A program made the position numbers and the translations under genes. Positions 34,901 through 59,816 of a DNA stretch of 64,000 bases are shown in pieces. The DNA is from an uncultured Actinomycetes bacterium. GTDB taxonomy: Bacteria > Chloroflexota > Dormibacteria > Aeolococcales > Aeolococcaceae. The notes beneath the pieces are model-generated. The model ran no database searches, was not told the DNA's origin, and saw only the letters and a program-made list of their open reading frames with translations. Each line of letters opens with the position of its first letter. The stretch's first letter is position 1. Location of the stretch: NCBI GenBank assembly GCA_964618935.1, contig CAZUDL010000006.1, forward strand, positions 71,874 through 135,873, read 5' to 3'.

Positions 34901-35487
34901 CCGAGCCGGTCGACCAGCCGCTGCACGGCGACATCGACGTGCTCCAGCCGGCGCAGGGCGTCGTCGCAGGCGACGCGCAGGGGGCGGACCCCGGCCGCCT
35001 GCTCGACCAGGCTGCGCCGCTGGCGCGGCGTCGCCTCGATGATCGCCTCGATGTCGTTCTGCGCGACGACGGCATAGCCGTGCTGGGTCAGCCCCGTCCC
35101 GCCGAGAAGGCGCTCGACGTCGCGGAGGCGGGCCCGATCCCCGTTGATCCTGTACTCGACCTCGCCGCCCCGCACCACGCGGCGGCTCACCGCCACCTCG
35201 GCGTCGTCGGCCGGAAGGCCGCCGTCCTCGTTGTCGAGGACCAGCTCGACCTCGGCCACCCCCATCCGCGGCCTGCCCTGGCCGCCGGCGAAGATGACCT
35301 CGTCGAGGCGGCTGCCGCGCAACTCCCTCGCGTTGGTCTCCCCCAGCGCCCAGCGGATGGCGTCGACGAGGTTGCTCTTGCCGCTGCCGTTGGGGCCCAC
35401 CACGCCGGTGATGCCCGGCTCGAAGCGGATCTCGCTGCGCAGCGCGAAGGTCTTGAACCCGCTGAGAACGACCCGGCGCAGCCTCAT
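31906..35487 (-). CDS. smc: chromosome segregation protein SMC
   Basis: [50 protein letters not shown]...long coiled coils...C-terminal [17 protein letters not shown]...[12 protein letters not shown]. Confidence 0.9.
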
Positions 35488-35572
35488 CCGCCGGATTCTC
35501 CCTGCAGGCTCAGCTCGGCGTCAACATCTGGGGTCGGCGCCGGGCCGGCACCACAAGATGTCGGGGCCGCGA

Positions 35573-43654: not shown

Positions 43655-43774
43655 GCGGCGGGTACCACCGGACCGTAACAGGTCGGTGATGTCTCAGAAT
43701 TCAATCGCGTCATTCAGCATACTTGGCTGGCCCACCATGGATGGTACATGTCTCCGGAGGACCCTCCAGTGAAC

Positions 43775-44437: not shown

Positions 44438-45018
44438 TGCGGCCCGCCCGCCGCCGCTCCCGCGGGCAGTCGCTCGTCGAGCTCGCGGTCCTCCTCCCCG
44501 TTATGGTCATCCTCTTCATGGGCGCCTGGACCGCCGCGGACCTCGTCGCCGACAACAACACCGCGATCCAGGCGACTCAGGAGGGCGCCCGCTACGCGGC
44601 CGAGCTCGGCGATGGCTCGAGCATGGGCACCGGGGTCACCGTCAACCAGGTCGACACTGCGATCGTCGAGCAGATGCTCCCGGTCCTGCATAGCCAGTTC
44701 ACCAACGCCGTGATCAACGAGATCGACATCTACCAGCCCGAGGGCTCCGGCAACGACTGCACCTTCACCACCTCGAGCTGTCCGCCCGACAACGGCGCCT
44801 ATGTGACCGGCGACCCCGTCGACCAGTGGCCGATCAGCGGCACGACGATCGGGACGCCGCTCCAGCTCACCTACACCCTCGCCCTGCGCGACCAGATTCA
44901 CCCCTTCGAGTCGGAGCTGGGCGTTCGGGTCAGATTCACATACACCTCGCCGACCATGCAGGTGTTCACCCAGACGGACTTCCAGTACACGGTCGTCCGG
45001 CTCGCGCCGGAGGAGTGA
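44434..45018 (+). CDS. TadE-family protein (second copy)
   Basis: RRRSRGQSLVELAVLLPVMVILFMGAWT. TadE signature. Confidence 0.65.
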   Translation: MMRPARRRSRGQSLVELAVLLPVMVILFMGAWTAADLVADNNTAIQATQEGARYAAELGDGSSMGTGVTVNQVDTAIVEQMLPVLHSQFTNAVINEIDIYQPEGSGNDCTFTTSSCPPDNGAYVTGDPVDQWPISGTTIGTPLQLTYTLALRDQIHPFESELGVRVRFTYTSPTMQVFTQTDFQYTVVRLAPEE

Positions 45019-45023
45019 TTCCC

Positions 45024-47048: not shown

Positions 47049-48311
47049 TCAGCGCAGGGCCTCGTCGACCAGCTCGATGACGTCGCGGACCTGGAGCCGG
47101 CCCTGGTTGCCGGTCGACTTCACGGCGTCCTCGAAGCGGGAGACCTCGTACGGGCAGCAGACGGCCAGGGTGTCCGCGCCCGTCTCCACCGCCTCGCGGA
47201 CCCGCCGCTCGCTGAGACGCTCCGCGATATGGTCGCGGGCGAAGCCGTCGAGCCACATGCCACCGCCGCCCCCGCCGCAGCAGTAGGCGTTCTCGCGGCA
47301 GCGGCGCATCTCCACCAACTCCAGGCCGGGGATGCTGCGGATCATCTGCCGCGGGGCGTCGTACTCGCCGTTGTGACGGCCCAGGTAGCAGGGGTCGTGG
47401 AAGGTGACCCGGTAGGGCAGCTCACGCGTCCAGGGAAGCCCCCCGAGCAGCGGGGCGAGGAACTGGGTGTAGTGGCTGACGTCGTAGCTGGCGCCGAGCT
47501 TGGGGTACTGGTGGCGCAGGGCGTTGTAGGCGTGGGGGTCGGGGGTGACCAGGCGGGTGAAGGCGTGGCGGGCGAGGGTCGCGATGTTCCGCTCCGCCTC
47601 CGCCTCGAAGAGGCCCCGCTCGCCGGCCATGCGCTGGCTGTCGCAGGCGCACCTCTCCTCCTGGCCGAGGATCCCCCAGTCGACGCCCAGCGCCGCCATG
47701 ACGCGGGCGAAGGCGCGCGCCGCGTCCCGGCCTCGGGGGTGATAGGACCAGTAACACTCCACGAAGACGAGGACGTCGACGGGGCGGGGATCGCGGCTCA
47801 GCACCGTCACCGGCACGCCCGCCTCGGCCACCCAGTCGGCCCGGCGGCGGGCGGGCTCACCGAGCGGGTTGCCGTGGCGGAAGGTGTTCTCCAGGGCGGT
47901 CTGCAGCTCGGCCGGGACGTTGCCCTGGGCCACGGCCTGCTCGCGCACCGCCGGCATGATCTGGAGCATGTCGACCTGCTTGGGGCAGACGCGCAGGCAG
48001 TTGGCGCAGGTGGTGCAGAGCCAGAGATCGGGGCTCTGGAGGAGATCGGCGCCCAGCTGGGTGCGCCGGTAGATCTTGCGGGGGCTGTAGTCGCCCACAT
48101 GGTCCACCGGGCAGACGGGGGTGCAGCCGCCGCACTGGAAGCAGGACCCCAGCGACTCGGCGCCGGCGATCTCCCGGACGCGGTCGAGGGCGCCGACGTC
48201 GTAGTCCCAGATCACCCGTTGCTCGAACATCCGGTTCCACGACCCGGAGATGTCCACCCCCTCGAAGGTGAGCTCCTTCTCCTCGGCGATCCGGGGGGGC
48301 GGATCGGCCAT
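47049..48311 (-). CDS. fused HdrC-HdrB-like (HdrD/GlcF-like) iron-sulfur protein, sHdr C2B2 equivalent
   Basis: Two ferredoxin motifs CFQCGGCTPVCP and CTTCANCLRVCP, followed by two CCG domains (VECYWSYH...; CYLGRHNGEYD...AYCCGGGGGGMWL...AVCCPYE). No TM segment. Confidence 0.75.
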   Translation of the reverse strand: MADPPPRIAEEKELTFEGVDISGSWNRMFEQRVIWDYDVGALDRVREIAGAESLGSCFQCGGCTPVCPVDHVGDYSPRKIYRRTQLGADLLQSPDLWLCTTCANCLRVCPKQVDMLQIMPAVREQAVAQGNVPAELQTALENTFRHGNPLGEPARRRADWVAEAGVPVTVLSRDPRPVDVLVFVECYWSYHPRGRDAARAFARVMAALGVDWGILGQEERCACDSQRMAGERGLFEAEAERNIATLARHAFTRLVTPDPHAYNALRHQYPKLGASYDVSHYTQFLAPLLGGLPWTRELPYRVTFHDPCYLGRHNGEYDAPRQMIRSIPGLELVEMRRCRENAYCCGGGGGGMWLDGFARDHIAERLSERRVREAVETGADTLAVCCPYEVSRFEDAVKSTGNQGRLQVRDVIELVDEALR

Positions 48312-49054
48312 CAGGCTCCCCGCCGCTGGACGCCGAGCAGCCGGCGCACCAGCTCGGGCGCCGGCGGGAGCACCGCGTTGAACTCGCGGCTCATGGCCGT
48401 CCCGGTGACGGTGTAGAGGTGGGCGGCGTAGACGGCGGCGAGGAACACGTCCACGCCGAACGGGGCCGGGCCGAAGCGGGTGATGCCCGCCGCCACCGCG
48501 GTCCGCTCGACGAAGGCGATGCCCTCCCCCACCCGCAGGTAGCTCTGGCCCGCCGACGCCGCGCTCAGATCGAGCTCCTCCGGGGTCGCCAGCGACAGGG
48601 CCCCGGTGCCCGTCCCCGGGTCCCAGATCCACCGCGTCCACAGCCAGTGGCGCGACGGGTCGAAGAAGTGCAGCACCTCTCCGGCGACGTCGAGGCGGAT
48701 GCCCGGGTCGACCCCGGCCAGGGCCGCGTCGAAGGCGTCGACGCGCGCGGCGACGGGCCCGGCGCCGTGCAGGAGGTCCCAGAGGGCGGACCGCCAGGCG
48801 TCCACGCCGCCCTCCGACAGCAGCGCGCCGGCGCGGCGGCGGGCGGCGAAGATGGTGCGCAGGCAGGCGCGCAGCCTCTCCGCGGAGACGTCGCGCAGCA
48901 CGCCGCGATCCAGCGCGTCCTGGAAGAGCCGGGACTTCGCCAGCAGGTCAGCGGCGACGCCCTCGAGCCCGGGCTCGGTGATCAGCGCCTGGGCCTGCCT
49001 CGCGAACTCGGCGGCGGCCTCGGTGCCGGCCACCTGGCCCTGGCCCCGGGTCAT
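48311..49054 (-). CDS. conserved hypothetical protein in the hdrA-hyp-hdrC2B2 position
   Basis: MTRGQGQVAG...DPSRHWLWTRWIWDPGTGTG. 247 aa. ATGA overlaps on both sides. The N-terminal 250 aa of ORF 48311..49801 overlaps hdrA and is an artefact. Confidence 0.5.
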   Translation of the reverse strand: MTRGQGQVAGTEAAAEFARQAQALITEPGLEGVAADLLAKSRLFQDALDRGVLRDVSAERLRACLRTIFAARRRAGALLSEGGVDAWRSALWDLLHGAGPVAARVDAFDAALAGVDPGIRLDVAGEVLHFFDPSRHWLWTRWIWDPGTGTGALSLATPEELDLSAASAGQSYLRVGEGIAFVERTAVAAGITRFGPAPFGVDVFLAAVYAAHLYTVTGTAMSREFNAVLPPAPELVRRLLGVQRRGA

Positions 49055-50121
49055 GCCCGCGGCGTGGCCGGCTCGGCGCGGCGGACCGCTGCCACCGCCC
49101 TGGCGGCGGCGGCGCCCGCCATGGAGACGCTGTCGTCCAGGTCCTTGGGGCCGGCCGCGGCGCCGGCGACGTAGATGCCCGGCACGGAGGTGCTGACGCT
49201 GTCCAGGGCGTCCTCCGCCACGGCGATGAAGCCGTGCTTCTCCTGGGCCACACCGAGCAGCGGGCCGATCGCCCTGGTCCCCTCCGACGGCACCATGCCG
49301 ACCGAGAGGACGACCACATCCATGGGGATCTCCAGGGGCCGGTTCATGGTCGTGTCCTCGCCCTTGATCACCAGGCGGTCGCCGCGCCTCGTGACCTCGG
49401 TGACGATGCCGCGCACGAAGTTGACGTGGTCCTCCTCCTGCGCCTTCCAGTAGAGGCGATCCTCCCAGAAGCCGTAGGTGCGCATGTCGATGTAGAAGAT
49501 GAAGACGCGGCAGTCCGGCACCAGGGCGCGGATCTCGGAGGCCTCCTTGGTGGCCACGGCGCAGCAGACCTTGGAGCAGTACTCGTTGCCGATGCGGCGG
49601 TCGCGGGAGCCGACGCACTGGATGAAGCAGACCTGCGCCGGCGGCAGCCCGGTGGAGGGCCGCACGAACCTCCCCGCCGACAGCATGCGCTCGGCGTCGA
49701 CCAGGGTGATGACGTCCTCGTACTCGTAGTAGCCGTACGCCTGCGTCTCCCGCCCGGGATCGAAGTGGTCGAAACCGGTGGCGATGATGACGGCGCCGCA
49801 CTCCACCACCGCGGTCGCCCCGTCCGCGTCGCGGAGCGTGGCCCGGAACGCCCCCAGCTCCCCCTCGAAGGCGGTCACCGACACACCCAGGCGCACCGAG
49901 ACGAGGGGATGGCCGAGCACCGCCCGGCGGGCCGCCTCGAGCACGACCTGCACCGGGCGGTGGTCGAGGGCGAACGCGGAGAAGCCGGCGGCGTCGGGGG
50001 TGCCGCCCAGCCGCTGCCGCTGCTCGACCAGCACCACCGGGCAGCCCAGGCCGACGGCGGCCCGGGCCGCCTCCAGCCCGGCCGGGCCGCCGCCGACGAC
50101 GAGGATCGTCTCAGCCGACAT
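49051..50121 (-). CDS. HdrA-like FAD-dependent iron-sulfur flavoprotein (heterodisulfide reductase subunit A family)
   Basis: ILVVGGGPAGLEAA (FAD GxGxxG)...CFIQCVGSRDRRIGNEYCSKVCCAVATKEA (HdrA-type Cx...CSxxCC 4Fe-4S)...GIYVAGAAAGPKD. Confidence 0.8.
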   Translation of the reverse strand: MSAETILVVGGGPAGLEAARAAVGLGCPVVLVEQRQRLGGTPDAAGFSAFALDHRPVQVVLEAARRAVLGHPLVSVRLGVSVTAFEGELGAFRATLRDADGATAVVECGAVIIATGFDHFDPGRETQAYGYYEYEDVITLVDAERMLSAGRFVRPSTGLPPAQVCFIQCVGSRDRRIGNEYCSKVCCAVATKEASEIRALVPDCRVFIFYIDMRTYGFWEDRLYWKAQEEDHVNFVRGIVTEVTRRGDRLVIKGEDTTMNRPLEIPMDVVVLSVGMVPSEGTRAIGPLLGVAQEKHGFIAVAEDALDSVSTSVPGIYVAGAAAGPKDLDDSVSMAGAAAARAVAAVRRAEPATPRA

Positions 50122-51310
50122 CCGTCCCCTCCCAGGTCACGTGCTCGATCTCGCCGCTCCTGATGCGCCGCAGGTCCTCCTCGAACTCCGCCCAGCGCGC
50201 CTCCCAGTCGATCCCCATCTTGGTCAGCAGCGGACGGTAGTCCACGGCGTGCCAGTGCAGCTGGCAGACCCGGTAGGGGTGCGCCCCCATCGAGAGGGCC
50301 ACGAACTGGGCCTCCGACATCACCGGAATGCCCACCTTGAACCCCTTGGCGCGGGCCACGAACTGGCTCTTGTCCAGCGTCGTGACGCAGCCCGTGTCGT
50401 GGGTCAGCACCACGTCGGGATTGGCCTCGTCGCGCATCACCTCGATCTTGCGCAGGGTGGCGAAGGAGCGGGTGAAGTCGCGCTGCAACATGATGTGCCG
50501 GAAGCCGAAGCCGCAGCAGTCGAACCACGTCGAGTAGTCGGCCACGGTGGCACCCATGGCCTGCACCACCGCGGAGACCACGGCGGTGCGCTGGCCGCCG
50601 TAGAGATCGGCGTCGTAGATGGCGTCCTCGGCCACCAGTTTGTAGTAGTGGCAGGCGGGGTGCACCGTGGCGGTGATCGCGGAGACGTCGAAGACGCGGC
50701 GCCTGGCGAACTCGTCACGCATGGCGTGCACCCATTCGCTGTAGTGCACGATCTCCTCGGGGATGACCATCGGTTTGCCCAGCTTGGCGAGGATGTCGCG
50801 CACCTGGTGGCGCAGCTCCGGGCTGTGGACGAGCTGCTCGCGGACCTCCTTGTAGTGGCCGTAGCTGGTGCCGCAATGGATCAGCGGGTAGTACCCCGTC
50901 TCGTGCGCTGCCGCGAAGTTGCGCAGCGCCACCGCCGCCTGGGCGGCGGCGTTGGAGGTCGCCGACGCATAGTAGTTCCACGCCGTGCACGAGGTCTGGT
51001 CGCGCGGGTCCTCGTAGTCCAGGCCCAGGGCCCGGTGCAGCCAGAAGATGGACGTCGAGTACCCGGGCAGGTGGCCGCACTGGCCGCAGCTCTTGTGGTG
51101 CCAGGTGTGCCGCACCGGGATCCTCTTGGTGCGCCCGTACTTGGTCTCCAGCTCGACATACGGCTCGGGCACGCGCTGGACGATCCACTCCCCCCGGCGC
51201 TCCAGCTCGAAGACGGCCTCGCGCAGATCCTCGGTGGGGGCGTTGGCCGGATCCCGTGTGAACGTCCGTCCCGCGGGGCCCAGCGCGGACAGCGTCACCA
51301 TGCCGCTCAT
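50111..51310 (-). CDS. HdrB-like protein with two CCG (Cys-rich) domains
   Basis: HKSCGQCGHLPGY...CTAWNYY and HPACHYYK...FDCCGFGFRH...THDTGCVTT. No ferredoxin CxxCxxCxxxCP motif. 399 aa. Confidence 0.75.
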   Translation of the reverse strand: MSGMVTLSALGPAGRTFTRDPANAPTEDLREAVFELERRGEWIVQRVPEPYVELETKYGRTKRIPVRHTWHHKSCGQCGHLPGYSTSIFWLHRALGLDYEDPRDQTSCTAWNYYASATSNAAAQAAVALRNFAAAHETGYYPLIHCGTSYGHYKEVREQLVHSPELRHQVRDILAKLGKPMVIPEEIVHYSEWVHAMRDEFARRRVFDVSAITATVHPACHYYKLVAEDAIYDADLYGGQRTAVVSAVVQAMGATVADYSTWFDCCGFGFRHIMLQRDFTRSFATLRKIEVMRDEANPDVVLTHDTGCVTTLDKSQFVARAKGFKVGIPVMSEAQFVALSMGAHPYRVCQLHWHAVDYRPLLTKMGIDWEARWAEFEEDLRRIRSGEIEHVTWEGTDVG

Positions 51311-51353
51311 GCTGCGCCCGCTGCGCGACCGGCGCGACGCTCAAGGCGGCGCA

Positions 51354-51728
51354 TCAGTAGCAGAACACCCGGCACTCGTCGGAGAGCGCCATCTCCGTGT
51401 AGCGCGCCGCGCCCATGGCACCGTCGACCTCGGGGATGAGGTCCTCCATGGTGAGGTCGTGCAGCGACAGCGACGCCGGGCAGACGTAGAGCGAGGCTCC
51501 GGCCGCCTTCGCCTGACGGATGAAGTCGAGCACCGTCTTGTCCTCACCGTCCTTGATGGTCAGCGTCTCCGCTACACCCTTCTTGAGCAGCAGGGTGCCG
51601 TCGATGAGGGTCACGATGACGCACTCGTAGTCGAGCGCCGTCGCGGCCATGGCCTGGAAGAAGGGCGTGCCGAGTCGGTGTCGCGTGTCGGGCCCCGACG
51701 TCATCATGATCAGCAGCGTGTTGGGCAT
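51354..51728 (-). CDS. DsrE/DsrF/TusD-like sulfur-relay family protein
   Basis: MPNTLLIMMTSGPD...YECVIVTLIDGTLLLKKG...SLYVCPASLSL. DsrE-fold Cys in CPAS. ATG with GGAGG Shine-Dalgarno. Confidence 0.65.
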   Translation of the reverse strand: MPNTLLIMMTSGPDTRHRLGTPFFQAMAATALDYECVIVTLIDGTLLLKKGVAETLTIKDGEDKTVLDFIRQAKAAGASLYVCPASLSLHDLTMEDLIPEVDGAMGAARYTEMALSDECRVFCY

Positions 51729-51862
51729 TGAGGCCTCCACCGCGGCGCCGGCCGACCCCGACTCGCGGCGTTGACGGCAGGATGCATACTGTGTTCACAT
51801 GTGGTTGTCGCGGTTCGAATGCCCCGGGAGTCCGGGGCGGAACGCGGCGAGGAGGGACGGCG

Positions 51863-52426
51863 ATGCCGACCAAGGTGTCCGCTGACGCGGAGATAGAGGA
51901 GCGCGTCCGCCAGGCCGTCGACGCCTACCTCGCCGAGAAGGCTCAGAAGGAGGCAGAGCGGCCCAAGAAGATCGCGCTGATCTCCAGCAAGGGCACGCTC
52001 GACATGGCCTACCCGCCCCTCATCCTCGCCACCACCGCGGCGGCGCTGGGCTGGGAGGCCGGCATCTTCTTCACCTTCTATGGCCTGAACATCATTCATC
52101 AGAAGAAGCACGCCAAGCTGCAGGTCGCGCCGCTCGGCAACCCCGCCATGCCCATGCCCGTCCCCAACCTGGTGGGCGCCATCCCGGGCATGACCGCGCT
52201 CGGCTCGACGATCATGAAGTCGATGTTCAAGTCGCACGGCATCGCCACCATCGACGATCTGCTCGAGGCGGCCGTCGACGGCGGCGTGCGGCTCATCCCC
52301 TGCTCCATGACCATGGACGTCTTCGGTTACAAGCCGACCGACTTCCTGAAGGGCGCCGAGGCTCCCTGCGGGGCGGCGACGTTCCTCGACTGGGCCGCCG
52401 ACTCGGACATCTCGCTGTTCATCTGA
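51863..52426 (+). CDS. DsrE/DsrF-like (DsrE3-type) family protein
   Basis: KKIALISSKGTLDMAYPPLILATTAAALGWEAGIFFTFYGLNII...VRLIPCSMTMDVFG. DsrE3-like conserved Cys. ATG with GGAGGG Shine-Dalgarno. The ORF 51728..52426 N-terminus is rejected. Confidence 0.6.
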   Translation: MPTKVSADAEIEERVRQAVDAYLAEKAQKEAERPKKIALISSKGTLDMAYPPLILATTAAALGWEAGIFFTFYGLNIIHQKKHAKLQVAPLGNPAMPMPVPNLVGAIPGMTALGSTIMKSMFKSHGIATIDDLLEAAVDGGVRLIPCSMTMDVFGYKPTDFLKGAEAPCGAATFLDWAADSDISLFI

Positions 52427-52461
52427 GCGCGCCCGGGGGGGTATGCGGAGCATGGGACGTC

Positions 52462-53934
52462 TCACTCTGACCGGGACGCCGCGGCCCGCCCCCACAGCGC
52501 GGGGCGGGTCAGCGGGACGGCGAGCTCCGGCCACACCCTCGGGTCGGGCCGCGGAGCGTATTCGCCGGTGACCGGGCTCACGTCGTAGGTCCAGCGCGGA
52601 CCCTCGCCGGCGATCCGGGTGAGCGCCTCGACGAGGCGATCCACGTCCCCCCTGGTCGTGCCCAGGCCCATGCTCATCCTCACCGCCCCCGGGACGCTGC
52701 GCCGGTCCCCGGCGATCAGCCGGCAGCGCACCAGCTCCGCCTCGGCGGGGTCGACGTGCAGCAGGTCCACCATCAGCGGATGGGCGCAGAAGCAGCCGTT
52801 GCGGACACCGATGCCGAACTCGGCGCTGAGGACGACGGCGAGCTGGCTGTGCTGGAAGCCGCCGAGGTTGAAGGTGACCACGCCGATGCGGGCACTGTCG
52901 TCGTGCCACGATCGGTAGAGCTCGATGCCGGGGATCTCGGCCAGCCGTCCTCGCGCGTACGCGCCCAGCTCCAGCTCCTCGCCAGCCACCCGGTTCATGC
53001 CATAGTCGCCCAGAACCCGCACGGCCGCGCCCAGCGCCACGGCGCCGGTGACGTTCGGCGAGCCCGCCTCCTGGCGGTCGGGCAGCGCGGTCCAGAGGAC
53101 GTCCCCGCCGGTGACGAACTCGACGGCTCCCCCGCCGCGCAGGAAGGGGGCGGAGCGCTCCAGCCAGTCCGGGCGCCCGATGAGCACGCCGACGCCGAAG
53201 GGCGCGTACATCTTGTGGCCGGAGGCCGCCATGTAGTCGACCCCGAGGTCACGGATGCTGACGGGGAAATGCGGCGCCAGCTGGGCGGCGTCCAGCAGCA
53301 CGCGGGCGCCGTGCGCGTGGGCCACGTCGGCCAGCTCGCGCACCGGCCAGATCTCGCCGGTGACATTGGACGCGCCGGTGATGGCGACCAGGTCGGTGCG
53401 GGTGCGCTCGAGATGGCGGGCCAGCGCCGCGACGGCCTCCTCCGCACTGCGGGGCACCTCCAGGTGGGTCGTGCGGAGCGTGTCCCGCCGCCAGGGCAGG
53501 AGGTTGGCGTGGTGCTCGGAGACGAAGGTCACGATCGAGGTCCCGGCCGGCAGCGACCCGGCCAGCAGGTTGACAGACTCCGTCGTGTTGCGGGTGAAGA
53601 TGACGACGTCGTCGGAGCGCGCGTCGAAGAACTCGTGGACGGCGTCGCGAGCGCCCTCGTAGGCGGCGGTCGCCAGCTGCGACTTGAAGCCGGTGCCGCG
53701 ATGGATGCTGCTGTAGTAGGGCAGGAACTCGGTGAGGGCGTCGGTCACCTCGGTGAGCGGCGGCGTGCTCGCCGCATAGTCGAGGTTGACGTAGCGAGTC
53801 CACCCACCGGTGACCAGCGGCACCTCGACGCCATCGCCGAGCAGCGCGGGCCGTGCCGTCGCCGACGCGTCGCATCCGGTGGCTGCGATGCCCGCGGGCA
53901 CACTGCCGCGCACGCGGACGGGGAACGTGGTCAC
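52462..53934 (-). CDS. class-V aminotransferase / cysteine desulfurase-like (SufS/CsdA group) with C-terminal extension
   Basis: SGHKMYAPFGVGVL (PLP Lys)...VRNGCFCAHP (cf. RxGHHCAxP persulfide-Cys loop). GTG start. Confidence 0.8.
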   Translation of the reverse strand: MTTFPVRVRGSVPAGIAATGCDASATARPALLGDGVEVPLVTGGWTRYVNLDYAASTPPLTEVTDALTEFLPYYSSIHRGTGFKSQLATAAYEGARDAVHEFFDARSDDVVIFTRNTTESVNLLAGSLPAGTSIVTFVSEHHANLLPWRRDTLRTTHLEVPRSAEEAVAALARHLERTRTDLVAITGASNVTGEIWPVRELADVAHAHGARVLLDAAQLAPHFPVSIRDLGVDYMAASGHKMYAPFGVGVLIGRPDWLERSAPFLRGGGAVEFVTGGDVLWTALPDRQEAGSPNVTGAVALGAAVRVLGDYGMNRVAGEELELGAYARGRLAEIPGIELYRSWHDDSARIGVVTFNLGGFQHSQLAVVLSAEFGIGVRNGCFCAHPLMVDLLHVDPAEAELVRCRLIAGDRRSVPGAVRMSMGLGTTRGDVDRLVEALTRIAGEGPRWTYDVSPVTGEYAPRPDPRVWPELAVPLTRPALWGRAAASRSE

Positions 53935-54137
53935 GTCGCCGCCAGACTCACGCGACTCGCGGCCGGCGATGCGTCATGAGGGTCGCCGTCGCGCCGTGGG
54001 AACGGCATGGGCCGGCAACCACCTCATGGTGCCATACTATACCGCATCAGTAGACATTCCGCCCCGGGCGGTCCGGCGCCCCAGCCCGCCGGCGGCACCG
54101 CCACGCCGCGCGGCGAGATGACCCCAGGAGTCCCACG

Positions 54138-54905
54138 TTGCGCATCGCGGTGATCATGAAACAGGTCCCGGACCTGGTTGAGGACGTCGAGGTGGACGCC
54201 CGAGGAACGGCCATCGACCGCGACGGAGTGCGCTGGACGGTGAACGAATTCGACGGTCACGCCCTGGAGCAGGCGATGCTGCTCAAGGAGGCGGTCGGGG
54301 CCGAGGTCACCGTCCTGGCCGTCGCCGCCGCCGGCATCGACCAGGTGCTCTTCGCCGCCCTGGCCCGGGGCGCGGACCGGGCCATCGTGGTGCCCACCCC
54401 GGAGGGCCGGACGGATGCCCCCCGGGTGGCGGCGGCCCTGGCGCCTGCGCTCACCGAGATCGGCGCGGACCTGGTCCTGACCGGCGTCCAGGCGGCCGAC
54501 GATCTCCACGGCCAGCTCGGCCCGATCCTGGCCGCGTCGCTGGGATGGCCCCACGTCAGCGTCGTCTGCGGCGCCGAGCTCCACGGCTCGGCGGTCGTCG
54601 TGCAGCAGGAGTACTCCGGCGGCCGGACGGCCGCCCTCGAGGTCGATCTCCCCGCCGTCCTCGGCGTCCAGGCCGCCGGCCGCCCGCCCCGGTACGTGCC
54701 CATCAGCCGGCTCCGCCAGGTCATCGCCTCGGCCACCATCGGCTCGCACGCCCCCGCCGCCGTGGTGCCGGCCCCGGCGACCACGGTGACCCGGCTGGCG
54801 GCCCCGGCCCAGGAGTCGCTGGCGCGCATGCTGGAGGGAAGCGCCGACGACGTGGCGCGCCAGATCGTCGAGGCGCTCCACGAACACGGCCTGGTGGGCG
54901 TCTGA
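54138..54905 (+). CDS. etfB: electron transfer flavoprotein beta subunit
   Basis: TTG start with AGGAG Shine-Dalgarno: MRIAVIMKQVPDLVEDVEVD...LVLTGVQAADD. Confidence 0.9.
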   Translation: MRIAVIMKQVPDLVEDVEVDARGTAIDRDGVRWTVNEFDGHALEQAMLLKEAVGAEVTVLAVAAAGIDQVLFAALARGADRAIVVPTPEGRTDAPRVAAALAPALTEIGADLVLTGVQAADDLHGQLGPILAASLGWPHVSVVCGAELHGSAVVVQQEYSGGRTAALEVDLPAVLGVQAAGRPPRYVPISRLRQVIASATIGSHAPAAVVPAPATTVTRLAAPAQESLARMLEGSADDVARQIVEALHEHGLVGV

Positions 54906-54907
54906 GC

Positions 54908-55876
54908 ATGCCCGGCATCCTCGTCTACATCGAGGCCGACCCCGGCGGTGTCGCCCCCGTCAGCTTCGAGGTCCTGGGGGCGGCGCGCACCCTGGCGCCG
55001 CATCTCGGCGGCCCCGTCGAGGCGCTGGTGGCCGCGGCCGACCCGGACACCCTGGCCGCCGCGCTGGGGGCCGCGGACAGTGTCCTCACGGTGACCGATC
55101 CGTCCCTCACCCCCTACCTCCCCGAGGCGCACCGGGCGGCCCTCGAAGAGGCCATCCGCGTCCGGCAGCCGTCGGTCGTCCTCATCGGCGGCACCTCCGC
55201 GGGGATCGACCTCGCCGCCGGCGCCGCCACCGCCACGAGCCGTCCCCTGGTCGCCTACTGCACCGCCCTGAGGGTGGCGGGGCAGGAGATGGAGGCCGAG
55301 AGCCAGCTCTACGGCGGCAAGCTGGTGGCGACCACCAGGACGGCCCCGCCGGCGATCTTCTCGCTGGTCGCGGGGTGCTTCCCCGAGGCTCCCGGGCACG
55401 CGCCGGGGACCGCCCCCCGCATCGCCCTGCCGCCGCCGGCCGCCCTCCAGCGGCTGAGGACGAGGCTGGTGGGGACGGGGGCCGCCGCCGCCGGCACGGT
55501 GGACATCACCAAGGCCGAGCGGATCGTCAGCGTCGGACGCGGCATCGGCGCCCCCGGCGACATCGACCTGGCCCGCGACCTGGCGACCGCCCTCGGTGCC
55601 GAGCTGGGCGCCTCCCGCCCGGTGGTCGACAGCGGCTGGCTGCCCAAGGAGCGGCAGGTGGGCAAGTCGGGGATGACCGTGAAGCCCAGGCTCTACGTGG
55701 CCGTCGGCATCTCCGGGGCGCCGGAGCACCTCGAGGGCATGCGCGGCGCCGGAGTCATCGTGGCCATCAACACCGACCCCGGCGCCCCGATCTTCCAGGT
55801 CGCCACCTACGGCAGCACCTGCGACTTCGGCGATCTCCTCCCCGCCCTCAGCGCCCGCCTGACGGCAGCCGGCTGA
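54908..55876 (+). CDS. etfA: electron transfer flavoprotein alpha subunit
   Basis: [11 protein letters not shown]...IVSVGRGIG...[43 protein letters not shown] (FAD-binding). Confidence 0.9.
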
Positions 55877-55880
55877 CCCG

Positions 55881-57875
55881 GTGGCGGTGCCCGCGATCCT
55901 CCTGCTCGCCCTGGTCGCGGCGGTCCTCCTCTGGTCCGGCACCCGCTACTGGCGGGTGCTGCGCCCCTTGGCCTCGGCTGCGCCCGAGCACCGCTCCGAC
56001 CACCCGGGGACCCGGCTCCGCGGTGTCGTCACCGAGGTCGGCGGCCACACCCGCCTCTTCGAGGTCCCCTACTCCGGGACGTTGCACGCGCTCATCTTCG
56101 GAGGCTTCGTGGTCCTGCTCACCGCGCTCGTCGAGGAGGCGGGCCGCCTGGTGGCGCCCGGATTCAGCCTCGACGCCATCGGCGGCTCCACCTGGATCGC
56201 CCTGCTGCAGGACGTCTTCGAGGTCGCCGTCCTGGTGGGGGTCTGCATGGCCGCCTACAACCGCTGGGCCCGGCGGCCCGCCCGCTTCCGCGGCTCCAAC
56301 CAGCGCGACGCGGCGGTGATCCTGGCGCTGATCTTCTGCGAGATGGTCAGCCTGCTCCTCCACGACGCCTTCCGCATCGGCCAGGGCGGCGATGCCGCCG
56401 CCGGCTGGCAGCCGGTGGCATCGGCGCTGGCGCGGCTGATCGAGGTGGCCGGGGTGCACGACGCGGCCGCCGCGCCCTGGGCGGGTGCCTTCTTCTGGGC
56501 CCACGTCACCGCGCTCCTCGTCTTCCTCCCCTACATCGCCACCAGCAAGCATCTGCACATCGCCACGGCCGTCCCCAACCTCTACTTCCGCAATCTCGGG
56601 CCCCGCGGCGCGCTGCGCCCGGTCGACCCCGGCGGCCCGGCGGTCGGGGTCGGCGAGGTCGACCAGCTCAGCTGGAAGCAGATGCTCGACCTCTACGCCT
56701 GCACCGAGTGCGGCCGCTGCCAGGACGCCTGTCCCGCCTTCGCCGCCGGCCAGCCGCTCAGCCCCAAGGTGCTGATCATGGACGTGCGCAACCACCTCCG
56801 CGACCGCGGCCGCTCCGCCACACGGAAGGCGGCAGGGGGCGCCGTGCCGCAGCTGCTCGGCGACGTCGTCCGCGACGAGACCCTCTGGGCCTGCACCACC
56901 TGCACCGCCTGCATGGAGGTGTGCCCCCTCCACATCGAGCACGTCCCCCTCATCGTCGACATGCGCCGCCGCCTCGTCGAGGAGGGTCGCATGGAGCCGC
57001 CGCTCCAGGACGCGCTGGCCAGCCTGGCCCGCCACGGCAACTCGTTCAACCGCTCGGAGCGGGCGCGATCGGCATGGACCAGGGATCTCGGCTTCCCGGT
57101 CAAGGACGCGCGCACTGAGCCGGTCGACGTGCTCTGGTTCGTCGGCGACTACGCCGCCTACGACCCCCGGGTGCAGGAGCTCACCAGGGGCGTCGCCCGC
57201 GTGCTGCACCGCGCCGGCGTCGACTACGGCATCCTCTACGAGGCGGAGCGGAACAGCGGCAACGACGTGCGCCGCGTCGGCGAGGAGGGGCTGTTCGAGC
57301 AGCTCGCCCGGCACAACATCGAGACGCTGGGCCGGTGCAGCTTCCGCCGCATCATGACCGCCGACCCCCACAGCCTCAACGCCCTCGCCCAGGAGTATCC
57401 GGGGATGGGCGGCCGCTATCCGGTGCTCCACTACACGCAGCTGCTGCTGGAGCTGGTGGAGAGGGGGGCGCTGGCGCCGGCGCCCCACCCGCAGGTGGTG
57501 ACCTACCACGATCCCTGCTACCTGGGACGCTACAACCAGGGGTACGACGCCCCGCGGCGGCTCCTGGAGCGCCTCGGCGTCACTCTCCACGAGATGCCGC
57601 GCTGCCGGGAGGCGAGCTTCTGCTGCGGGGCCGGCGGCGGCCGCATCTGGATGGATGACAGCGGGCAGACGGAGCGCCCCAGCGAGTCGCGGATCCGCGA
57701 GGCGGTCGCCCTGGGTGACGCCCACCGCCTGGTCGTGGCCTGCCCCAAGGACATGGTGATGTTCACCGCCGCGGTGCAGGCGACCGGCATGGCCGGGCGC
57801 ATGGAGGTGGTGGACGTCATCGAGCTGGTGGAGGCGTCCCTGACGCCGGAGGAGGTGGCCGTTGCCGTCGCCTGA
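55881..57875 (+). CDS. membrane-anchored Fe-S oxidoreductase, HdrE/NarI-like cytochrome-b N-domain fused to HdrD/DsrK-like CCG domain (EtfD-like)
   Basis: 5-6 TM with conserved His (HALIFGG, HDAF, WAHVTALLVFLPYIATSKHLHIA), then CTECGRCQDACP and CTTCTACMEVCP ferredoxin motifs, then CCG domains (YHDPCYLGRYNQGYD...FCCGAGGGRIW...VVACPKD). GTG 4 nt after etfA stop. Confidence 0.8.
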   Translation: MAVPAILLLALVAAVLLWSGTRYWRVLRPLASAAPEHRSDHPGTRLRGVVTEVGGHTRLFEVPYSGTLHALIFGGFVVLLTALVEEAGRLVAPGFSLDAIGGSTWIALLQDVFEVAVLVGVCMAAYNRWARRPARFRGSNQRDAAVILALIFCEMVSLLLHDAFRIGQGGDAAAGWQPVASALARLIEVAGVHDAAAAPWAGAFFWAHVTALLVFLPYIATSKHLHIATAVPNLYFRNLGPRGALRPVDPGGPAVGVGEVDQLSWKQMLDLYACTECGRCQDACPAFAAGQPLSPKVLIMDVRNHLRDRGRSATRKAAGGAVPQLLGDVVRDETLWACTTCTACMEVCPLHIEHVPLIVDMRRRLVEEGRMEPPLQDALASLARHGNSFNRSERARSAWTRDLGFPVKDARTEPVDVLWFVGDYAAYDPRVQELTRGVARVLHRAGVDYGILYEAERNSGNDVRRVGEEGLFEQLARHNIETLGRCSFRRIMTADPHSLNALAQEYPGMGGRYPVLHYTQLLLELVERGALAPAPHPQVVTYHDPCYLGRYNQGYDAPRRLLERLGVTLHEMPRCREASFCCGAGGGRIWMDDSGQTERPSESRIREAVALGDAHRLVVACPKDMVMFTAAVQATGMAGRMEVVDVIELVEASLTPEEVAVAVA

Positions 57876-57962
57876 GCCGCCCGGAGGACGTCGGGATTCC
57901 CTCCTGTACCATGGCGGAATCCATGCCGAGGCCGCCGCCCAGCGGCCCGCGGAGGCCTGACC

Positions 57963-58400
57963 GTGGCGACCGTCAACCATTGCGACATCCCCGAAGACCT
58001 GCACTATCTGGTGGACAAGCACGTCTGGGTGCAGCGCCAGGACGACGGTGCCGTCCTGCTCGGCATCACCGACCCCGCCCAGAAGCTGGCCGGCAGGATC
58101 GTCGCCCTCACCACCAAGAAGGTCGGGCGCGTCATCACCAGGGGACAGAGCGCCGGCACCGTCGAGAGCTCCAAGTGGGTGGGACCGATCCCGAGCCCGC
58201 TCAGCGGCGAGATCGTGGCCGTCAACGAGGCCCCGCTGAAGGACCCCGCCGTGCTCAACCGGGAGCCCTACGCCAACTGGATCGTGCGCCTCCAGCCCAG
58301 CCTGTGGGACGAGGAGTGCGGCGAGATGGTGACCGGTGCCGAGGGGGTTGAGGCGTACCGCCGCCTGCTCGCCGAGGCGGGCATCGACTGCGACAGTTGA
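57963..58400 (+). CDS. GcvH-like lipoate-binding protein (LbpA-type by context)
   Basis: LLGITDPAQKLAGRIVALT...GTVESSKWVGPIPSPLSGEIVAVNEAPLKDP. Lipoyl-Lys in ESSKW. GTG with GGAGG Shine-Dalgarno. Confidence 0.8.
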   Translation: MATVNHCDIPEDLHYLVDKHVWVQRQDDGAVLLGITDPAQKLAGRIVALTTKKVGRVITRGQSAGTVESSKWVGPIPSPLSGEIVAVNEAPLKDPAVLNREPYANWIVRLQPSLWDEECGEMVTGAEGVEAYRRLLAEAGIDCDS

Positions 58401-58424
58401 CACAACGAGAACGGGAGGAGAACG

Positions 58425-58664
58425 ATGGCCATCGATAGTGCGGATTTGACCCTGGACTGCCGGCACATGCTGTGCCCGACACCGATCGTCAAGGTGTCCA
58501 AGGCGATCAAGGAGGTGGAGCTCGGCCAGACGCTGCTGCTCATCGCCGACGACCCTGGGGCGCCCTCCGACGTCCAGAGCTGGTCGCGCCGCACCGGCAA
58601 CGAGCTGGTCTCCACCGAGCAGGAGGGCGACGTGTCGCGATTCCTGATCCGCCGCACCCGCTGA
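58425..58664 (+). CDS. TusA-family sulfurtransferase
   Basis: LDCRHMLCPTPIVKVSKAIKEV. CPxP motif. 79 aa. GGGAGGAG Shine-Dalgarno. Confidence 0.8.
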   Translation: MAIDSADLTLDCRHMLCPTPIVKVSKAIKEVELGQTLLLIADDPGAPSDVQSWSRRTGNELVSTEQEGDVSRFLIRRTR

Positions 58665-59347
58665 TGTCTCCCCCCCCGGCCCCCGCCGCCACTCTCGAGG
58701 AGAGATGGCGGCTGCTCGCCGAGGTGGAGGCGGACCCGCGCTTCCCCGACTGCCTGCGGGGCTGTTTCGAGTGCGGCATCTGCGTGGCGGCGTGCCCGTC
58801 GGCGCGCTTCTACGACTTCAGTCCCCGCCGCATCGTGCAGGCGATGGCACGCGAGGACGTCGATCTGGTGTGGGAGCAGATGAACCACGACGTCTGGGAC
58901 TGCTCCCAGTGCTTCTCCTGCCTGCGCTGCCCGCGGGGCAACAACCCCGGCGGCGTGATCACCATCATGCGCGAGGTGGCGGTGCGCAACGGGCTCCACT
59001 CGGCCAAGCAGGCGCTCGCCGGGTACGGCCGCATCATCTACAAGATCATGGCCACCGGGACGCAGGTGGCCCCGGACATGATCCAGCCCGAGTCCTTCCC
59101 CGACTGGGGCCCGGTCACCCGCGAGATCGCCGACAACCTCCAGGTCTGGCGCCAGGCGCTGCCGCCGGAGACGCTCCACACCACCGGCGCGTCGTGGGAC
59201 GTCGACGCCAAGACGGTCGCCGAGCTCTACCTCATCTGGCACCTGACGGGCGTCCTCGACATCATCAAGAGCGTCGACCCGACACTGCACTCGATCCTCA
59301 GCGACGTCATGGAAGAGGTGCTGGAGGAGCACGGGTACCAGGTCTGA
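58664..59347 (+). CDS. HdrC-like ferredoxin (2x[4Fe-4S])
   Basis: CFECGICVAACP and CSQCFSCLRCP. 227 aa. ATG overlaps tusA stop (TGATG). Confidence 0.75.
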   Translation: MSPPPAPAATLEERWRLLAEVEADPRFPDCLRGCFECGICVAACPSARFYDFSPRRIVQAMAREDVDLVWEQMNHDVWDCSQCFSCLRCPRGNNPGGVITIMREVAVRNGLHSAKQALAGYGRIIYKIMATGTQVAPDMIQPESFPDWGPVTREIADNLQVWRQALPPETLHTTGASWDVDAKTVAELYLIWHLTGVLDIIKSVDPTLHSILSDVMEEVLEEHGYQV

Positions 59348-59384: not shown

Positions 59385-59816
59385 TCAGAGAGGGGTGAGG
59401 CGGAAGACCGGGTGGCGCGGCGCCTCGGCGGCGATCTCCGCAAGGGACGCGCCGTGCTTGACGTCGAAGAAGGGGCGCACCACGGTCACCTGCTTCAGGT
59501 ACTCCTTCAGCACCGGCGCCGCCTCATGGGGCGGGACCTGCTCGATGCGCAGGCGTTGCGTTCGCCCGCGACGGCTCACCTCGACCTCCCCGGCGGCGCG
59601 CGCGTTGCGCACCCAGGCGACCTCGCCGTACGGGGCCACCAGCCAGCGCTCGCGGTCCTCGATCAGCCGCACCGGCGTGGACCGCGAGAGGCCCGTGCGC
59701 CGGCCCTTCACCGTCAGCGTGTACGTGTGCCGCCCGCCGAGACCGCCACGGTCGAGCAGCTTGATCACCGCGTTCACGGCGCGGCGTGCCGGGCCGCGGC
59801 GGTACGTCCTCGGCAT
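59385..59816 (-). CDS. nitroreductase-family deazaflavin-dependent oxidoreductase (DUF385/PNPOx-like)
   Basis: MPRTYRRGPARRAVNAVIKLL...TVKGRRTGLSRSTPV...WLVAPYGEVAWVRNARAAGEVE. Matches the DUF385 family pattern. Confidence 0.65.
   Translation of the reverse strand: MPRTYRRGPARRAVNAVIKLLDRGGLGGRHTYTLTVKGRRTGLSRSTPVRLIEDRERWLVAPYGEVAWVRNARAAGEVEVSRRGRTQRLRIEQVPPHEAAPVLKEYLKQVTVVRPFFDVKHGASLAEIAAEAPRHPVFRLTPL

Follow-up and report, generated by a model that had tools for sequence, protein, structure and literature searches.

The region described here occupies positions 47049–59347 of a 64-kb stretch of DNA (64,000 nucleotides, hereafter the window) from an uncultured soil bacterium. At 72% GC, the sequence yields many spurious open reading frames, and genes were picked by third-position GC content and their starts refined (GC3 of 0.85–0.97 in the chosen genes). 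The thirteen real genes are arranged in four transcription units on two strands within 12.3 kb, and the borders of the region are the stop codons of the genes for sHdrB3 and sHdrC1, respectively. One module, dsrE3A-shdrB1AHB3, lies on the minus strand and the other, etfBA-emo-lbpA-tusA-shdrC1, on the plus strand. Within each, the refined starts show neighbouring genes that abut or overlap, which is consistent with co-transcription. Domains were assigned with Pfam and NCBIfam models, structural matches were retrieved against the PDB, and conservation was read from alignments of homologues. All the sHdr components named in the first-pass annotation are present with the domains stated, and the strand layout and gene order match its description. 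It had, however, taken the host for a high-GC Bacillota; it encodes proteins 100% identical to MAG entries, and the host is Candidatus Dormibacteria.

sHdrA (49051–50121, minus strand; 356 aa) is a short FAD/[4Fe-4S] flavoprotein that resembles HdrA and carries the motif CVGSRD...CSKVCC. Its top PDB match is sHdrA of Hyphomicrobium denitrificans (6TJR), which aligns over the full length with 294 bits; methanogen HdrA aligns to residues 97–348 only. C169, C182, C186 and C187 are invariant among its homologues. sHdrB1 (50111–51310, minus strand; 399 aa; Pfam CCG), an HdrB-like protein homologous to methanogen HdrB (NF041780; PDB 9SFI/5ODC), is proposed to be the catalytic CCG subunit. Eight of its cysteines do not vary among 71 homologues: C75, C78, C108, C146, C220, C265, C266 and C308. 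It had been annotated with two CCG motifs; the protein does belong to the CCG type, but Pfam finds one canonical CCG stretch, and the N-terminal half bears four further invariant cysteines. sHdrC1 (58664–59347, plus strand; 227 aa) is a ferredoxin-like protein with two [4Fe-4S] sites (Pfam Fer4_8, NF041779 HdrC) and eight cysteines invariant in 66 homologues, and its gene is the last of the etf-lbpA-tusA operon.

sHdrB3 (47049–48311, minus strand; 420 aa) fuses an HdrC-like part with two [4Fe-4S] clusters to an HdrB-like CCG part (Pfam Fer4_8 and CCG). Across 72 homologues, its eight cubane cysteines are invariant, as are C308, C344, C345, C386 and E389, whereas the cysteines of the first CCG domain are just 39–60% conserved. 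Only the second CCG domain is thus intact, with a single noncubane site, as described for sHdrB3 proteins (PMC11094781). With the soluble domain of the EMO encoded in the same region, sHdrB3 shares 41% identity. sHdrH (48311–49054, minus strand; 247 aa) is the hypothetical protein conserved in shdr clusters. Searches of Pfam and NCBIfam returned no match, and no informative structural neighbour was found for its AlphaFold2 model, which is all-alpha (pLDDT 86). In about 70 of the 80 loci surveyed below, a homologue separates sHdrA from sHdrB3.

The genes for a DsrE3A-like sulfur transferase (51354–51728, minus strand; 124 aa; Pfam DsrE) and a DsrE2(B)-like carrier (51863–52426, plus strand; 187 aa; Pfam DrsE_2, 162 bits) are divergently transcribed. 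The former, a small DsrE, has as its top PDB match 3MC3, identified as DsrE3A of S. solfataricus (PMC11094781), and its Cys83 is invariant in 65 homologues. The latter scores 184 bits with the DsrE2 model NF047629, under the cut-off of 210; its top PDB match is 2QS7, and Cys147 is invariant. TusA (58425–58664, plus strand; 79 aa; Pfam TusA, 76 bits) carries the motif LCPTP, whose Cys17 is kept in 95% of 62 homologues. The GcvH-like protein (57963–58400, plus strand; 145 aa; Pfam GCV_H) belongs to the lipoate-binding proteins and is encoded by a single copy in the window. Its K71 aligns with the lipoyl lysine of GcvH, and among 50 homologues encoded in clusters C7 and C143 do not vary; Cao et al. 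2018 (PMC6067878) recognised such a cysteine pair, missing from GcvH, as the hallmark of LbpA. The protein scores 111.6 and 73.7 bits with the two NCBI GcvH models, under their cut-offs of 117 and 115.9, and is 37–38% identical to the GcvH of Mycobacterium tuberculosis and Escherichia coli vs 47–74% to LbpAs. These features place it, as first proposed, with LbpA and not with true GcvH. No genes for a lipoate ligase or for LipS1/S2/LipT were found within the 64-kb window.

EtfB (54138–54905, plus strand; 255 aa; Pfam ETF) has as its nearest structure the non-bifurcating ETF of M. methylotrophus (1O94), and reads AADDLHG where bifurcating EtfB has the DGDT motif. EtfA (54908–55876, plus strand; 322 aa) contains the ETF and ETF_alpha domains and has PDB matches. 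They are followed by the ETF:menaquinone oxidoreductase EMO/EtfD (55881–57875, plus strand; 664 aa), a membrane protein with two [4Fe-4S] clusters and a CCG domain. The membrane quinone reductase-type fusion reported initially is a genuine EtfD/EMO homologue, matching M. smegmatis EtfD (9OJN) over residues 9–656 (E 8e-103). By this homology, it is predicted to have a five-helix membrane domain with haem b, a pair of cubane clusters and a single noncubane [4Fe-4S] site: the haem ligands H69/H226, R128/R279, F76/F215, the eight cysteines of clusters D3/D4 and the D2 cysteines C546/C581/C582/C621 are all conserved. As fifth D2 ligand the protein has Asp624, and an Asp occupies this position in 43 of 44 sHdr-linked EMO homologues (the 44th has a gap). 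All four D1 ligands are absent. EtfD/EMO is regarded as the wire from ETF to menaquinone (PMC13083937; bioRxiv 10.64898/2026.08.18.745454).

The synteny survey covered 80 related loci from more than ten phyla, including Dormibacterota, Chloroflexota, Methylomirabilota, Bacillota, Bacteroidota, Marinimicrobia, Calditrichota, Planctomycetota and archaea. The gene set co-occurs in nearly all of them, far beyond chance, and the anticipated co-conservation of the two modules in relatives is thereby borne out. The usual order is tusA-dsrE2-dsrE-C1-B1-A-H-B3-etfB-etfA-emo-lbpA. Homologues encoded in clusters of Chloroflexota, Bacillota, Methylomirabilota and others are 55–91% identical for sHdrA and 38–69% for EMO. 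The window layout is a lineage-specific rearrangement of this otherwise colinear operon, with the etf-emo-lbpA-tusA-C1 module in the opposite orientation to dsrE3A-B1-A-H-B3. The position of sHdrC1 after tusA is common to the Dormibacterota loci L002, L003, L005 and L006. Two small genes and a second lbpA, still present in relatives, have been lost from the window copy. A small Zn-ribbon gene between emo and lbpA, intact in 16 loci, survives in the window as a remnant of roughly its last 20 codons (57895–57954, plus strand), detected by tblastn (60% identity over 20 aa, E 0.004) and by DNA alignment with L002, L003 and L006. With these losses, the functionality of the window copy is not guaranteed.

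We regard the region as very likely a type II sHdr-LbpA gene cluster of a Candidatus Dormibacteria genome, complete but with its genes rearranged. The first-pass annotation knew of no description of the coupling to ETF. Its novelty is not supported: ETF and the membrane quinone reductase are standard parts of type II sHdr, shdrC1B1AHB3-etfAB-emo (Tanabe et al. 2024, PMC11094781), which is the same system as Group III of Cao et al. 2018 (PMC6067878) and Hdr cluster II of Sulfobacillus (Justice et al. 2014, PMC4378227). The electron route to the quinone pool that it suggested agrees with the published proposal that EtfAB and EMO pass electrons to menaquinone (PMC11094781). Since type II systems lack biochemical or genetic characterisation (PMC11094781), we infer substrate, product and direction of electron flow alike, and the sulfur-oxidising function is putative. 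Judging from the protein families and the published model, sulfane sulfur would ride on DsrE3A/DsrE2 and TusA as a persulfide or thiosulfonate and be handed to lipoylated LbpA and a cytoplasmic sHdr complex (A, B1, C1, H and B3). The noncubane Fe-S centres of sHdrB1 would be the site of its oxidation, probably to sulfite. Electrons would exit to EtfAB via sHdrB3, a soluble paralogue of the ETF-facing domain of EMO, and pass from ETF through the noncubane cluster, the two cubane clusters and haem b of EMO to menaquinone.

Alternatively, an ETF/EtfD module of fatty-acid or amino-acid oxidation might lie by chance beside a glycolate-, lactate- or Flx-Hdr-type CCG module with an ordinary GcvH. EtfD/EMO with EtfAB normally serves beta-oxidation (PMC13083937; bioRxiv 10.64898/2026.08.18.745454), the two modules occupy opposite strands in the window, and CCG proteins also occur in GlcF/LutA. 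However, in nearly all related loci of many phyla, sHdrB3 is followed immediately by etfB-etfA-emo on its own strand, and the survey effectively refutes this extremely improbable reading. The sHdr/LbpA identity proposed at the outset also holds: GlcF, LutB and GlpC models reach 20–56 bits vs cut-offs of 278–445, the HdrA is of the short sHdrA type, the LbpA cysteines are present in the GcvH-like protein, which scores under the GcvH cut-offs, and acyl-CoA dehydrogenase, gcvT and gcvP are absent from the window. It is also conceivable, though unlikely, that type II Hdr-ETF-EMO serves thiol/disulfide redox metabolism in starvation or persistence and not dissimilatory oxidation of inorganic sulfur; it would oxidise organic thiols, whether endogenous or exogenous, or protein persulfides, or would operate in reverse. 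Dormibacteria are soil oligotrophs and, to our knowledge, neither sulfur oxidation nor sulfur lithotrophy is known in them. The window lacks genes handling inorganic sulfur substrates or sulfite, and no rhodanese, sulfite-oxidising enzyme or sulfur importer was found near the cluster. In the non-lithotroph Thermomicrobium roseum, a homologous 19-gene cluster is about 45-fold upregulated in nutrient-limited cells, for which Islam et al. proposed thiol oxidation with electrons passed onward via ETF (PMC6776052). Against this, TusA, DsrE3A, DsrE2 and an LbpA with a SoxY-like terminal cysteine form the set of proven type I sulfur oxidisers, and type II carriers such as Sulfobacillus oxidise sulfur (PMC11094781).

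The thirteenth gene, csd, encodes a SufS/CsdA-like class-V PLP enzyme (52462–53934, minus strand; 490 aa; Aminotran_5, 298 bits) that reaches 302 bits with the sufS model, under the cut-off of 475. Its PLP lysine and catalytic cysteine align with those of Bacillus subtilis SufS (5J8Q). In this Dormibacteria subclade, the enzyme could be the entry point of the pathway, passing sulfur from cysteine as persulfide to TusA/DsrE, so that the cluster would oxidise cysteine-derived sulfur. In E. coli, TusA is known to accept persulfide from desulfurases; csd lies between the two modules, divergent from etfB, and it adjoins dsrE2-dsrE3A in L001 and L003, although the etf module of L003 is elsewhere. 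Class-V aminotransferase genes also occur inside the Planctomycetota cluster L066 (34.6% identical) and near the Marinimicrobia cluster L023 (35.1%; distance about 1.1 kb). Yet csd is its own transcription unit and not a conserved part of the system: such genes are absent from most of the 80 loci, the frequency of about 5/80 being close to chance for a common family. Dormibacteraeota, Ferrimicrobium and other genomes carry orthologues with 57–61% identity that are unlinked to shdr and usually have a GntR regulator upstream, and the orthologue with 71% identity lies 7 kb off, beyond a transposase gene. A role as entry point thus seems quite improbable; csd lies beside the cluster in the closest Dormibacteria only, and its membership of the sHdr system is doubtful.

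Compared with known systems, the type II cluster of the window shares with methanogenic HdrABC and Flx-HdrABC homologous B (CCG) and C (two [4Fe-4S]) subunits and the thioredoxin reductase-like core of HdrA. However, its 356-aa HdrA lacks the ferredoxin and inserted domains, scores lie far under cut-offs (HdrA2 251 vs 1100, HdrB 129 vs 450), and Mvh and Flx partners are absent. With EtfD/EMO of M. smegmatis and Syntrophus aciditrophicus, the window EMO shares the five-helix membrane domain, proximal haem b histidine pair, haem-propionate arginine residues, quinone-site phenylalanine residues, two cubane clusters, noncubane [4Fe-4S] site and location by etfBA. It differs in lacking the four cysteines of the linear [3Fe-4S] cluster D1, as in FadF and DgcB, in the Asp replacing the fifth D2 cysteine, in the missing long disordered C-terminal tail, and in its presumed electron source, sHdr instead of acyl-CoA dehydrogenases. 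Type I sHdr-LbpA (shdrC1B1AHC2B2) of Hyphomicrobium denitrificans, Acidithiobacillus and Aquifex is a genetically proven pathway of sulfane-sulfur oxidation. It has in common with the window sHdrA, B1, C1 and H, an LbpA with the lysine and two cysteines, TusA and DsrE-type transferases, whereas the window has B3, EtfAB and EMO instead of separate sHdrC2 and sHdrB2, and lipoate-maturation genes are not adjacent. Our literature search found no mention of sHdr in Dormibacterota. The likeness to type II extends to sHdrC1, B1, A, H, the fused B3, EtfAB and EMO, with LbpA, TusA, DsrE3A and DsrE2 accompanying this core. Particular to the window copy are sHdrC1 moved behind tusA from its type II place before B1, a trait shared across Dormibacterota; the inverted etf module; one LbpA vs two or three; the loss of the small Zn-ribbon gene, but for its remnant, and of its neighbour; and the intercalated cysteine-desulfurase gene.

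The interval 47049-59347 of the window, which has a GC content of ~72%, is filled by 13 genes and is bounded on either side by a stop codon, that of sHdrB3 at one border and that of sHdrC1 at the other. Long spurious ORFs are common at this composition, so coding frames were picked by third-position GC (GC3 0.85-0.97), after which start codons were refined. The minus strand carries a ferredoxin-CCG fusion (sHdrB3, 47049-48311), a hypothetical protein (sHdrH, 48311-49054), an HdrA-like flavoprotein (sHdrA, 49051-50121), an HdrB-like CCG protein (sHdrB1, 50111-51310) and a small DsrE (DsrE3A-like, 51354-51728). These are followed by a DsrE2-like protein on the plus strand (51863-52426) and a SufS-like class-V PLP enzyme on the minus strand (52462-53934). 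EtfB and EtfA (54138-55876), a membrane-anchored ferredoxin-CCG protein (EMO, 55881-57875), a GcvH-like protein (LbpA, 57963-58400), TusA (58425-58664) and an HdrC-like ferredoxin (sHdrC1, 58664-59347) are all encoded on the plus strand. Apart from sHdrH, for which neither Pfam nor NCBIfam returned a family match, domains were assigned with these two collections, which confirmed every domain that the first-pass annotation had listed for the interval. Genes overlap or abut inside each module (e.g. B1/A, A/H, H/B3 and tusA/C1), which fits co-transcription.

The identity of the cluster as a type II sulfur-oxidising heterodisulfide-reductase-like (sHdr) system is well supported. Type II is defined by shdrC1, B1, A, H, B3 and etfAB in one syntenic cluster (PMC11094781, section 5.8), and all seven genes lie within 47049-59347. 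EMO is encoded in the cluster, as are sulfur transferases of the kind linked with type II, which are predominantly TusA and DsrE3A and often DsrE2. The canonical colinear order shdrC1-B1-A-H-B3-etfA/B-emo is not kept: C1 stands after tusA, and the etf and hdr modules are read from different strands. Since the family is defined by gene content, the altered order is a difference in arrangement and not in content. For the coupling of Hdr, LbpA, ETF and a membrane CCG protein, the first-pass annotation was aware of no earlier description. This coupling has been described repeatedly, and the claim of novelty is therefore unsupported. Hdr-like genes linked with EtfAB and a membrane CCG protein were reported as 'hdr gene cluster II' of Sulfobacillus (Justice 2014, PMC4378227), as 'Group III' of Actinobacteria and Firmicutes (Cao 2018, PMC6067878) and as a starvation-induced 19-gene cluster of Thermomicrobium roseum (Islam 2019, PMC6776052), and type II spans 12 phyla and 130 assemblies (Tanabe 2024, PMC11094781). 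We found no link between sHdr and Dormibacterota in the literature searched, which did not cover Tanabe 2024's list of these phyla. Here a known type II system stands in a lineage undiscussed in that literature, with its gene set rearranged and slightly reduced.

sHdrA of the window matched 6TJR, the crystal structure of the Hyphomicrobium denitrificans protein, along its entire length (294 bits), and the four cluster cysteines of the window's protein (C169, C182, C186 and C187) are invariant in homologues. Methanogen HdrA structures covered residues 97-348 only. A methanogen- or Flx-type Hdr was ruled out by the PDB matches and by scores far under the cut-offs of the NCBIfam HdrA models (251 against 1100 and 223 against 1400). 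sHdrB1 is homologous to methanogen HdrB and has eight invariant cysteines, and the eight cysteines for two cubane clusters are present in sHdrC1. sHdrB3 combines Fer4 and CCG domains (Pfam) within a single 420-aa protein. Its eight cubane cysteines are invariant, the first CCG domain is degenerate and the second alone is intact (invariant C308/C344/C345/C386), and an invariant glutamate, Glu389, occupies the position of the last cysteine of HdrB. Besides B1, the window has no CCG/ferredoxin paralogue other than B3, EMO and C1. Glycolate-oxidase or lactate-utilisation paralogues were another candidate. The GlcF, LutA and GlpC identities were ruled out by the PDB matches together with NCBIfam scores far under the cut-offs, namely 20-31 bits against 333 for GlcF, 33-37 against 445 for LutB and 36-56 against 278-280 for GlpC. 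The predicted structure of sHdrH is a confident, all-helical model, and a structural-neighbour search with it gave no informative match.

The GcvH-like protein is LbpA and is predicted to bind lipoate. K71 falls at the position of the lipoyl lysine in GcvH from M. tuberculosis and E. coli. This lysine, C7 near the N-terminus and C143 near the C-terminus do not vary across 50 cluster-encoded homologues. M. tuberculosis GcvH has serine where LbpA has C7, and two cysteines near the termini were reported to set LbpA apart from GcvH (Cao 2018, PMC6067878). The window's protein falls short of the cut-offs of both NCBI GcvH models (TIGR00527, 73.7 against 115.85; PRK01202, 111.6 against 117), and its identity is 37-38% with GcvH from M. 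tuberculosis and E. coli compared with 47-74% with cluster-encoded LbpAs of other genomes. Neither gcvT nor gcvP was found in the 64-kb window. The first-pass annotation had named grouping with glycine-cleavage H proteins as what would overturn the LbpA assignment. The missed cut-offs, K71 with the two LbpA cysteines and the identity pattern all favour LbpA, so a bona fide GcvH is ruled out. The lipoate-assembly genes sLpl(AB), LipS1, LipS2 and LipT were absent from the 64-kb window, in which the sole radical-SAM gene is an RlmN fragment (63224-64000), and they may lie elsewhere in the host genome. Strict linkage of maturation genes in the same operon was reported by Cao 2018 for its Group I only (PMC6067878). 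Among 97 GcvH-like ORFs, 20 form a third class that lacks both LbpA cysteines, is 27-39% identical to the LbpA of the window and is positioned after B3 or emo. Bacteroidota, Marinimicrobia, Calditrichota and others encode them within their type II clusters (related loci L010, L016, L020, L021, L023, L027, L028, L030, L031, L034, L038, L046, L047, L050, L051, L054, L072-L074 and L077).

The 664-aa protein encoded after etfA is clearly homologous to M. smegmatis EtfD (9OJN, E 8e-103, residues 9-656), and its sequence marks it as a predicted EtfD-type ETF:menaquinone oxidoreductase. Published EtfD ligands (PMC13083937) were transferred to EMO through the 9OJN alignment. The membrane domain is of the five-TM type, the haem b histidines H69 and H226 are conserved, two of the three haem-propionate arginines (R128 and R279) and both quinone-site phenylalanines (F76 and F215) are kept, and all eight cysteines of the cubane clusters D3 and D4 are present. 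Noncubane cluster D2 retains four of its five cysteines (C546/C581/C582/C621). The position of the fifth ligand is held by Asp624, with aspartate in 43 of 44 sHdr-linked homologues and a gap in the remaining one. None of the four residues that bind the linear [3Fe-4S] cluster D1 in EtfD is present, and D423, N458, D495 and S498 take their places; no cysteine occurs at any D1 position in the 44 sHdr-linked EMOs, and aspartate is invariant at two. sHdrB3 and the soluble part of EMO share 41% identity, and the invariant glutamate of B3 falls at the position of Asp624. This likeness suggests, at the level of sequence, that B3 may face ETF where electrons leave the sHdr complex and that EMO may face ETF where they enter the membrane. 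On whether the ETF is of the bifurcating type the two subunits point different ways: EtfB is closest to the non-bifurcating ETF of M. methylotrophus and lacks DGDT, and EtfA is closest to the bifurcating-type CarE.

The closest sHdrA homologues are named Candidatus Dormibacteria or Dormibacteraeota. A Bacillota host, as originally suggested for this DNA, is wrong: proteins of the window are 100% identical to entries from Candidatus Dormibacteria MAG contigs, and the nearest species-representative locus (L001, 91% identity) comes from a Dormibacteraeota MAG. We surveyed synteny in 80 related genome loci annotated against the proteins of the window. The order was almost always tusA-(dsrE2)-dsrE-(lbpA)-C1-B1-A-H-B3-etfB-etfA-emo-lbpA(-lbpA) on one strand, in Chloroflexota, Methylomirabilota, Bacillota, Bacteroidota, Marinimicrobia, Calditrichota, Planctomycetota and archaea. 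Three Dormibacterota loci (L002, L005 and L006) have B1-A-H-B3-etfB-etfA-emo-[two small genes]-lbpA-lbpA-tusA-C1, in which C1 has been relocated to the end. In the window and L001 the second half is inverted and the desulfurase gene lies between the halves, and a further Dormibacterota locus, L003, shows a third arrangement. The hdr and etf modules, which the first-pass annotation had joined into one gene set, are thus firmly co-conserved, and their split is a local rearrangement. With domains, structure matches and residues, this synteny bears out the sHdr/LbpA family assignment. In the close relative L002, an extra set at 4477-8583, directly upstream of sHdrB1, adds a pair of HdrA-like genes (34-36% identity) and another B3-like gene (60% identity).

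In relatives the stretch from emo to lbpA holds two small genes. The product of one is a Zn-ribbon protein (CxxC...CxxC, ~95 aa); this small conserved gene is intact there in 16 type II loci of Dormibacterota and Chloroflexota, and the gene preceding it encodes ~110 aa. A second lbpA is present in L002, L005 and L006 and absent from L003. In the window, the emo-lbpA spacer (57876-57962) is ~88 bp long and holds a remnant at 57895-57954 that corresponds to the last ~20 Zn-ribbon codons. Other than this 60-nt remnant, no second lbpA and neither small gene was found elsewhere in the window. The Zn-ribbon gene, the preceding ~110-aa gene and the second lbpA have been deleted in this copy.

Housekeeping genes make up the remainder of the window (ispG, dxr, uppS, pyrH, rpsB, topA, rplS, rimM, rpsP, ffh, ftsY, smc, rnc, acpP, fabG, fabD, rsmD, recG, fakA, asp23 and rlmN). 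The stretch from recG to fakA(yloV)-asp23 (41561-62758) encloses pseudopilin genes (tadE/tadE/tadG, 43748-47012) along with the shdr cluster and three small genes. As recG and fakA(yloV)-asp23 are contiguous in many Gram-positive genomes, an insertion of ~17 kb is suggested. The flank B3-tadG-tadE-tadE-recG-rsmD is common to L001 (8730-14770) and absent from the other Dormibacterota loci. A deazaflavin (F420H2)-dependent nitroreductase/quinone-reductase family gene (59385-59816, minus strand) is convergent with sHdrC1, and a gene of this family adjoins the cluster in none of the 80 related loci. Scans for promoters, terminators and inverted repeats gave nothing beyond what shuffled sequence would yield. 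The divergent dsrE2/dsrE3A intergenic region (51729-51862) contains an AT-rich palindromic element at 51778-51791 in this 72% GC genome, and relatives have TTCGGATAT..GCATATTATGC in common in the same region (L003 7328-7475, L004 822-941 and L006 6697-6814). The palindrome could be a candidate operator for some regulator. A gene pair that looks like cysE-cysK lies 20 kb away from the sulfur cluster, on the plus strand at 28937-30868. Its first gene encodes a serine acetyltransferase-like protein with hexapeptide repeats, an acyltransferase, and its second a cysteine synthase-like PALP enzyme. GC rises to 0.79 at 32000-36000, across smc (31906-35487, minus strand); the long ORF antisense to smc (32059-34464, 801 aa, high GC3) is probably a shadow ORF.

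The CPxP cysteine of TusA is present as Cys17. The small DsrE has its best PDB match in 3MC3, a DsrE3A according to Tanabe et al. (PMC11094781), and Cys83 is invariant. The larger DsrE best matches 2QS7, a DsrE2B, and scores 184 bits with the NCBI DsrE2 model NF047629, under the 210 cut-off. The SufS-like protein keeps the PLP lysine and the catalytic cysteine. Among relatives, only L001 and L003, the nearest ones, have its gene beside the shdr cluster; an orthologue at 71% identity lies 7 kb off, beyond a transposase gene, and those at ~60% identity are not linked to shdr. A role for it as a conserved component of the system is unsupported. It is a neighbour of the cluster whose relevance is uncertain.

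Sulfane-sulfur oxidation with electrons passing via ETF and EMO to menaquinone is the published proposal for type II (PMC11094781). In the host of the window, DsrE and TusA would relay sulfur to LbpA and sHdr, the sulfur would be oxidised at sHdrB1 and electrons would flow from B3 through EtfAB and EMO to menaquinone. The basis of this mechanism is type I genetics and biochemistry together with the type II proposal, to which the window adds conserved cofactor ligands and synteny only. The chief alternative is that the cluster handles thiol or persulfide redox chemistry under starvation, a role put forward for the T. roseum cluster (PMC6776052). That two unrelated modules became adjacent by chance is unlikely, as the hdr and etf modules are co-conserved in nearly all of the 80 loci.

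A desulfurase-fed variant of the sulfane-sulfur route is also unlikely. One Dormibacteria subclade would have recruited the SufS-like desulfurase beside a streamlined type II cluster with a single LbpA and the Zn-ribbon gene missing, and non-lithotrophic soil oligotrophs would respire sulfane sulfur derived from cysteine or organosulfur, which seems a long shot given that the gene is not conserved with the cluster in the 80 loci and that its orthologues are distant or unlinked. The same reading has electrons reaching menaquinone via sHdrB3, ETF and EMO to supply maintenance energy beside the known trace-gas oxidation, a use that we consider very improbable. Sulfane-sulfur oxidation as published for type II remains the preferred reading.

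These results place a complete type II sHdr-ETF-EMO cluster, and not a new wiring, in Candidatus Dormibacteria. This uncultured lineage of soils is known mostly for persisting on trace gases, and its repertoire gains a possible energy route based on sulfur or thiols. The variants seen here (relocated C1, single LbpA, lost Zn-ribbon gene and EMO without D1) could guide work on which accessory genes type II needs, and the EtfD cofactor sites mapped on the sHdr-linked EMO and on sHdrB3 give a concrete, testable path through B3, ETF and EMO. Methanogenic and Flx HdrABC have a long HdrA (~650 aa) with ferredoxin domains, whereas the sHdrA of the window has 356 aa. Type I sHdr has separate sHdrC2 and sHdrB2, which the window lacks; its sHdrB3 instead matches exactly, in fusion and in single noncubane site, the published sHdrB3, an sHdrC2-sHdrB2 fusion able to bind only one noncubane cluster (PMC11094781). 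Mycobacterial EtfD carries the linear cluster D1, in contrast to the EMO of the window. D1 is likewise absent from the EtfD homologues FadF and DgcB, in which ETF has been proposed to pass electrons directly to D2.
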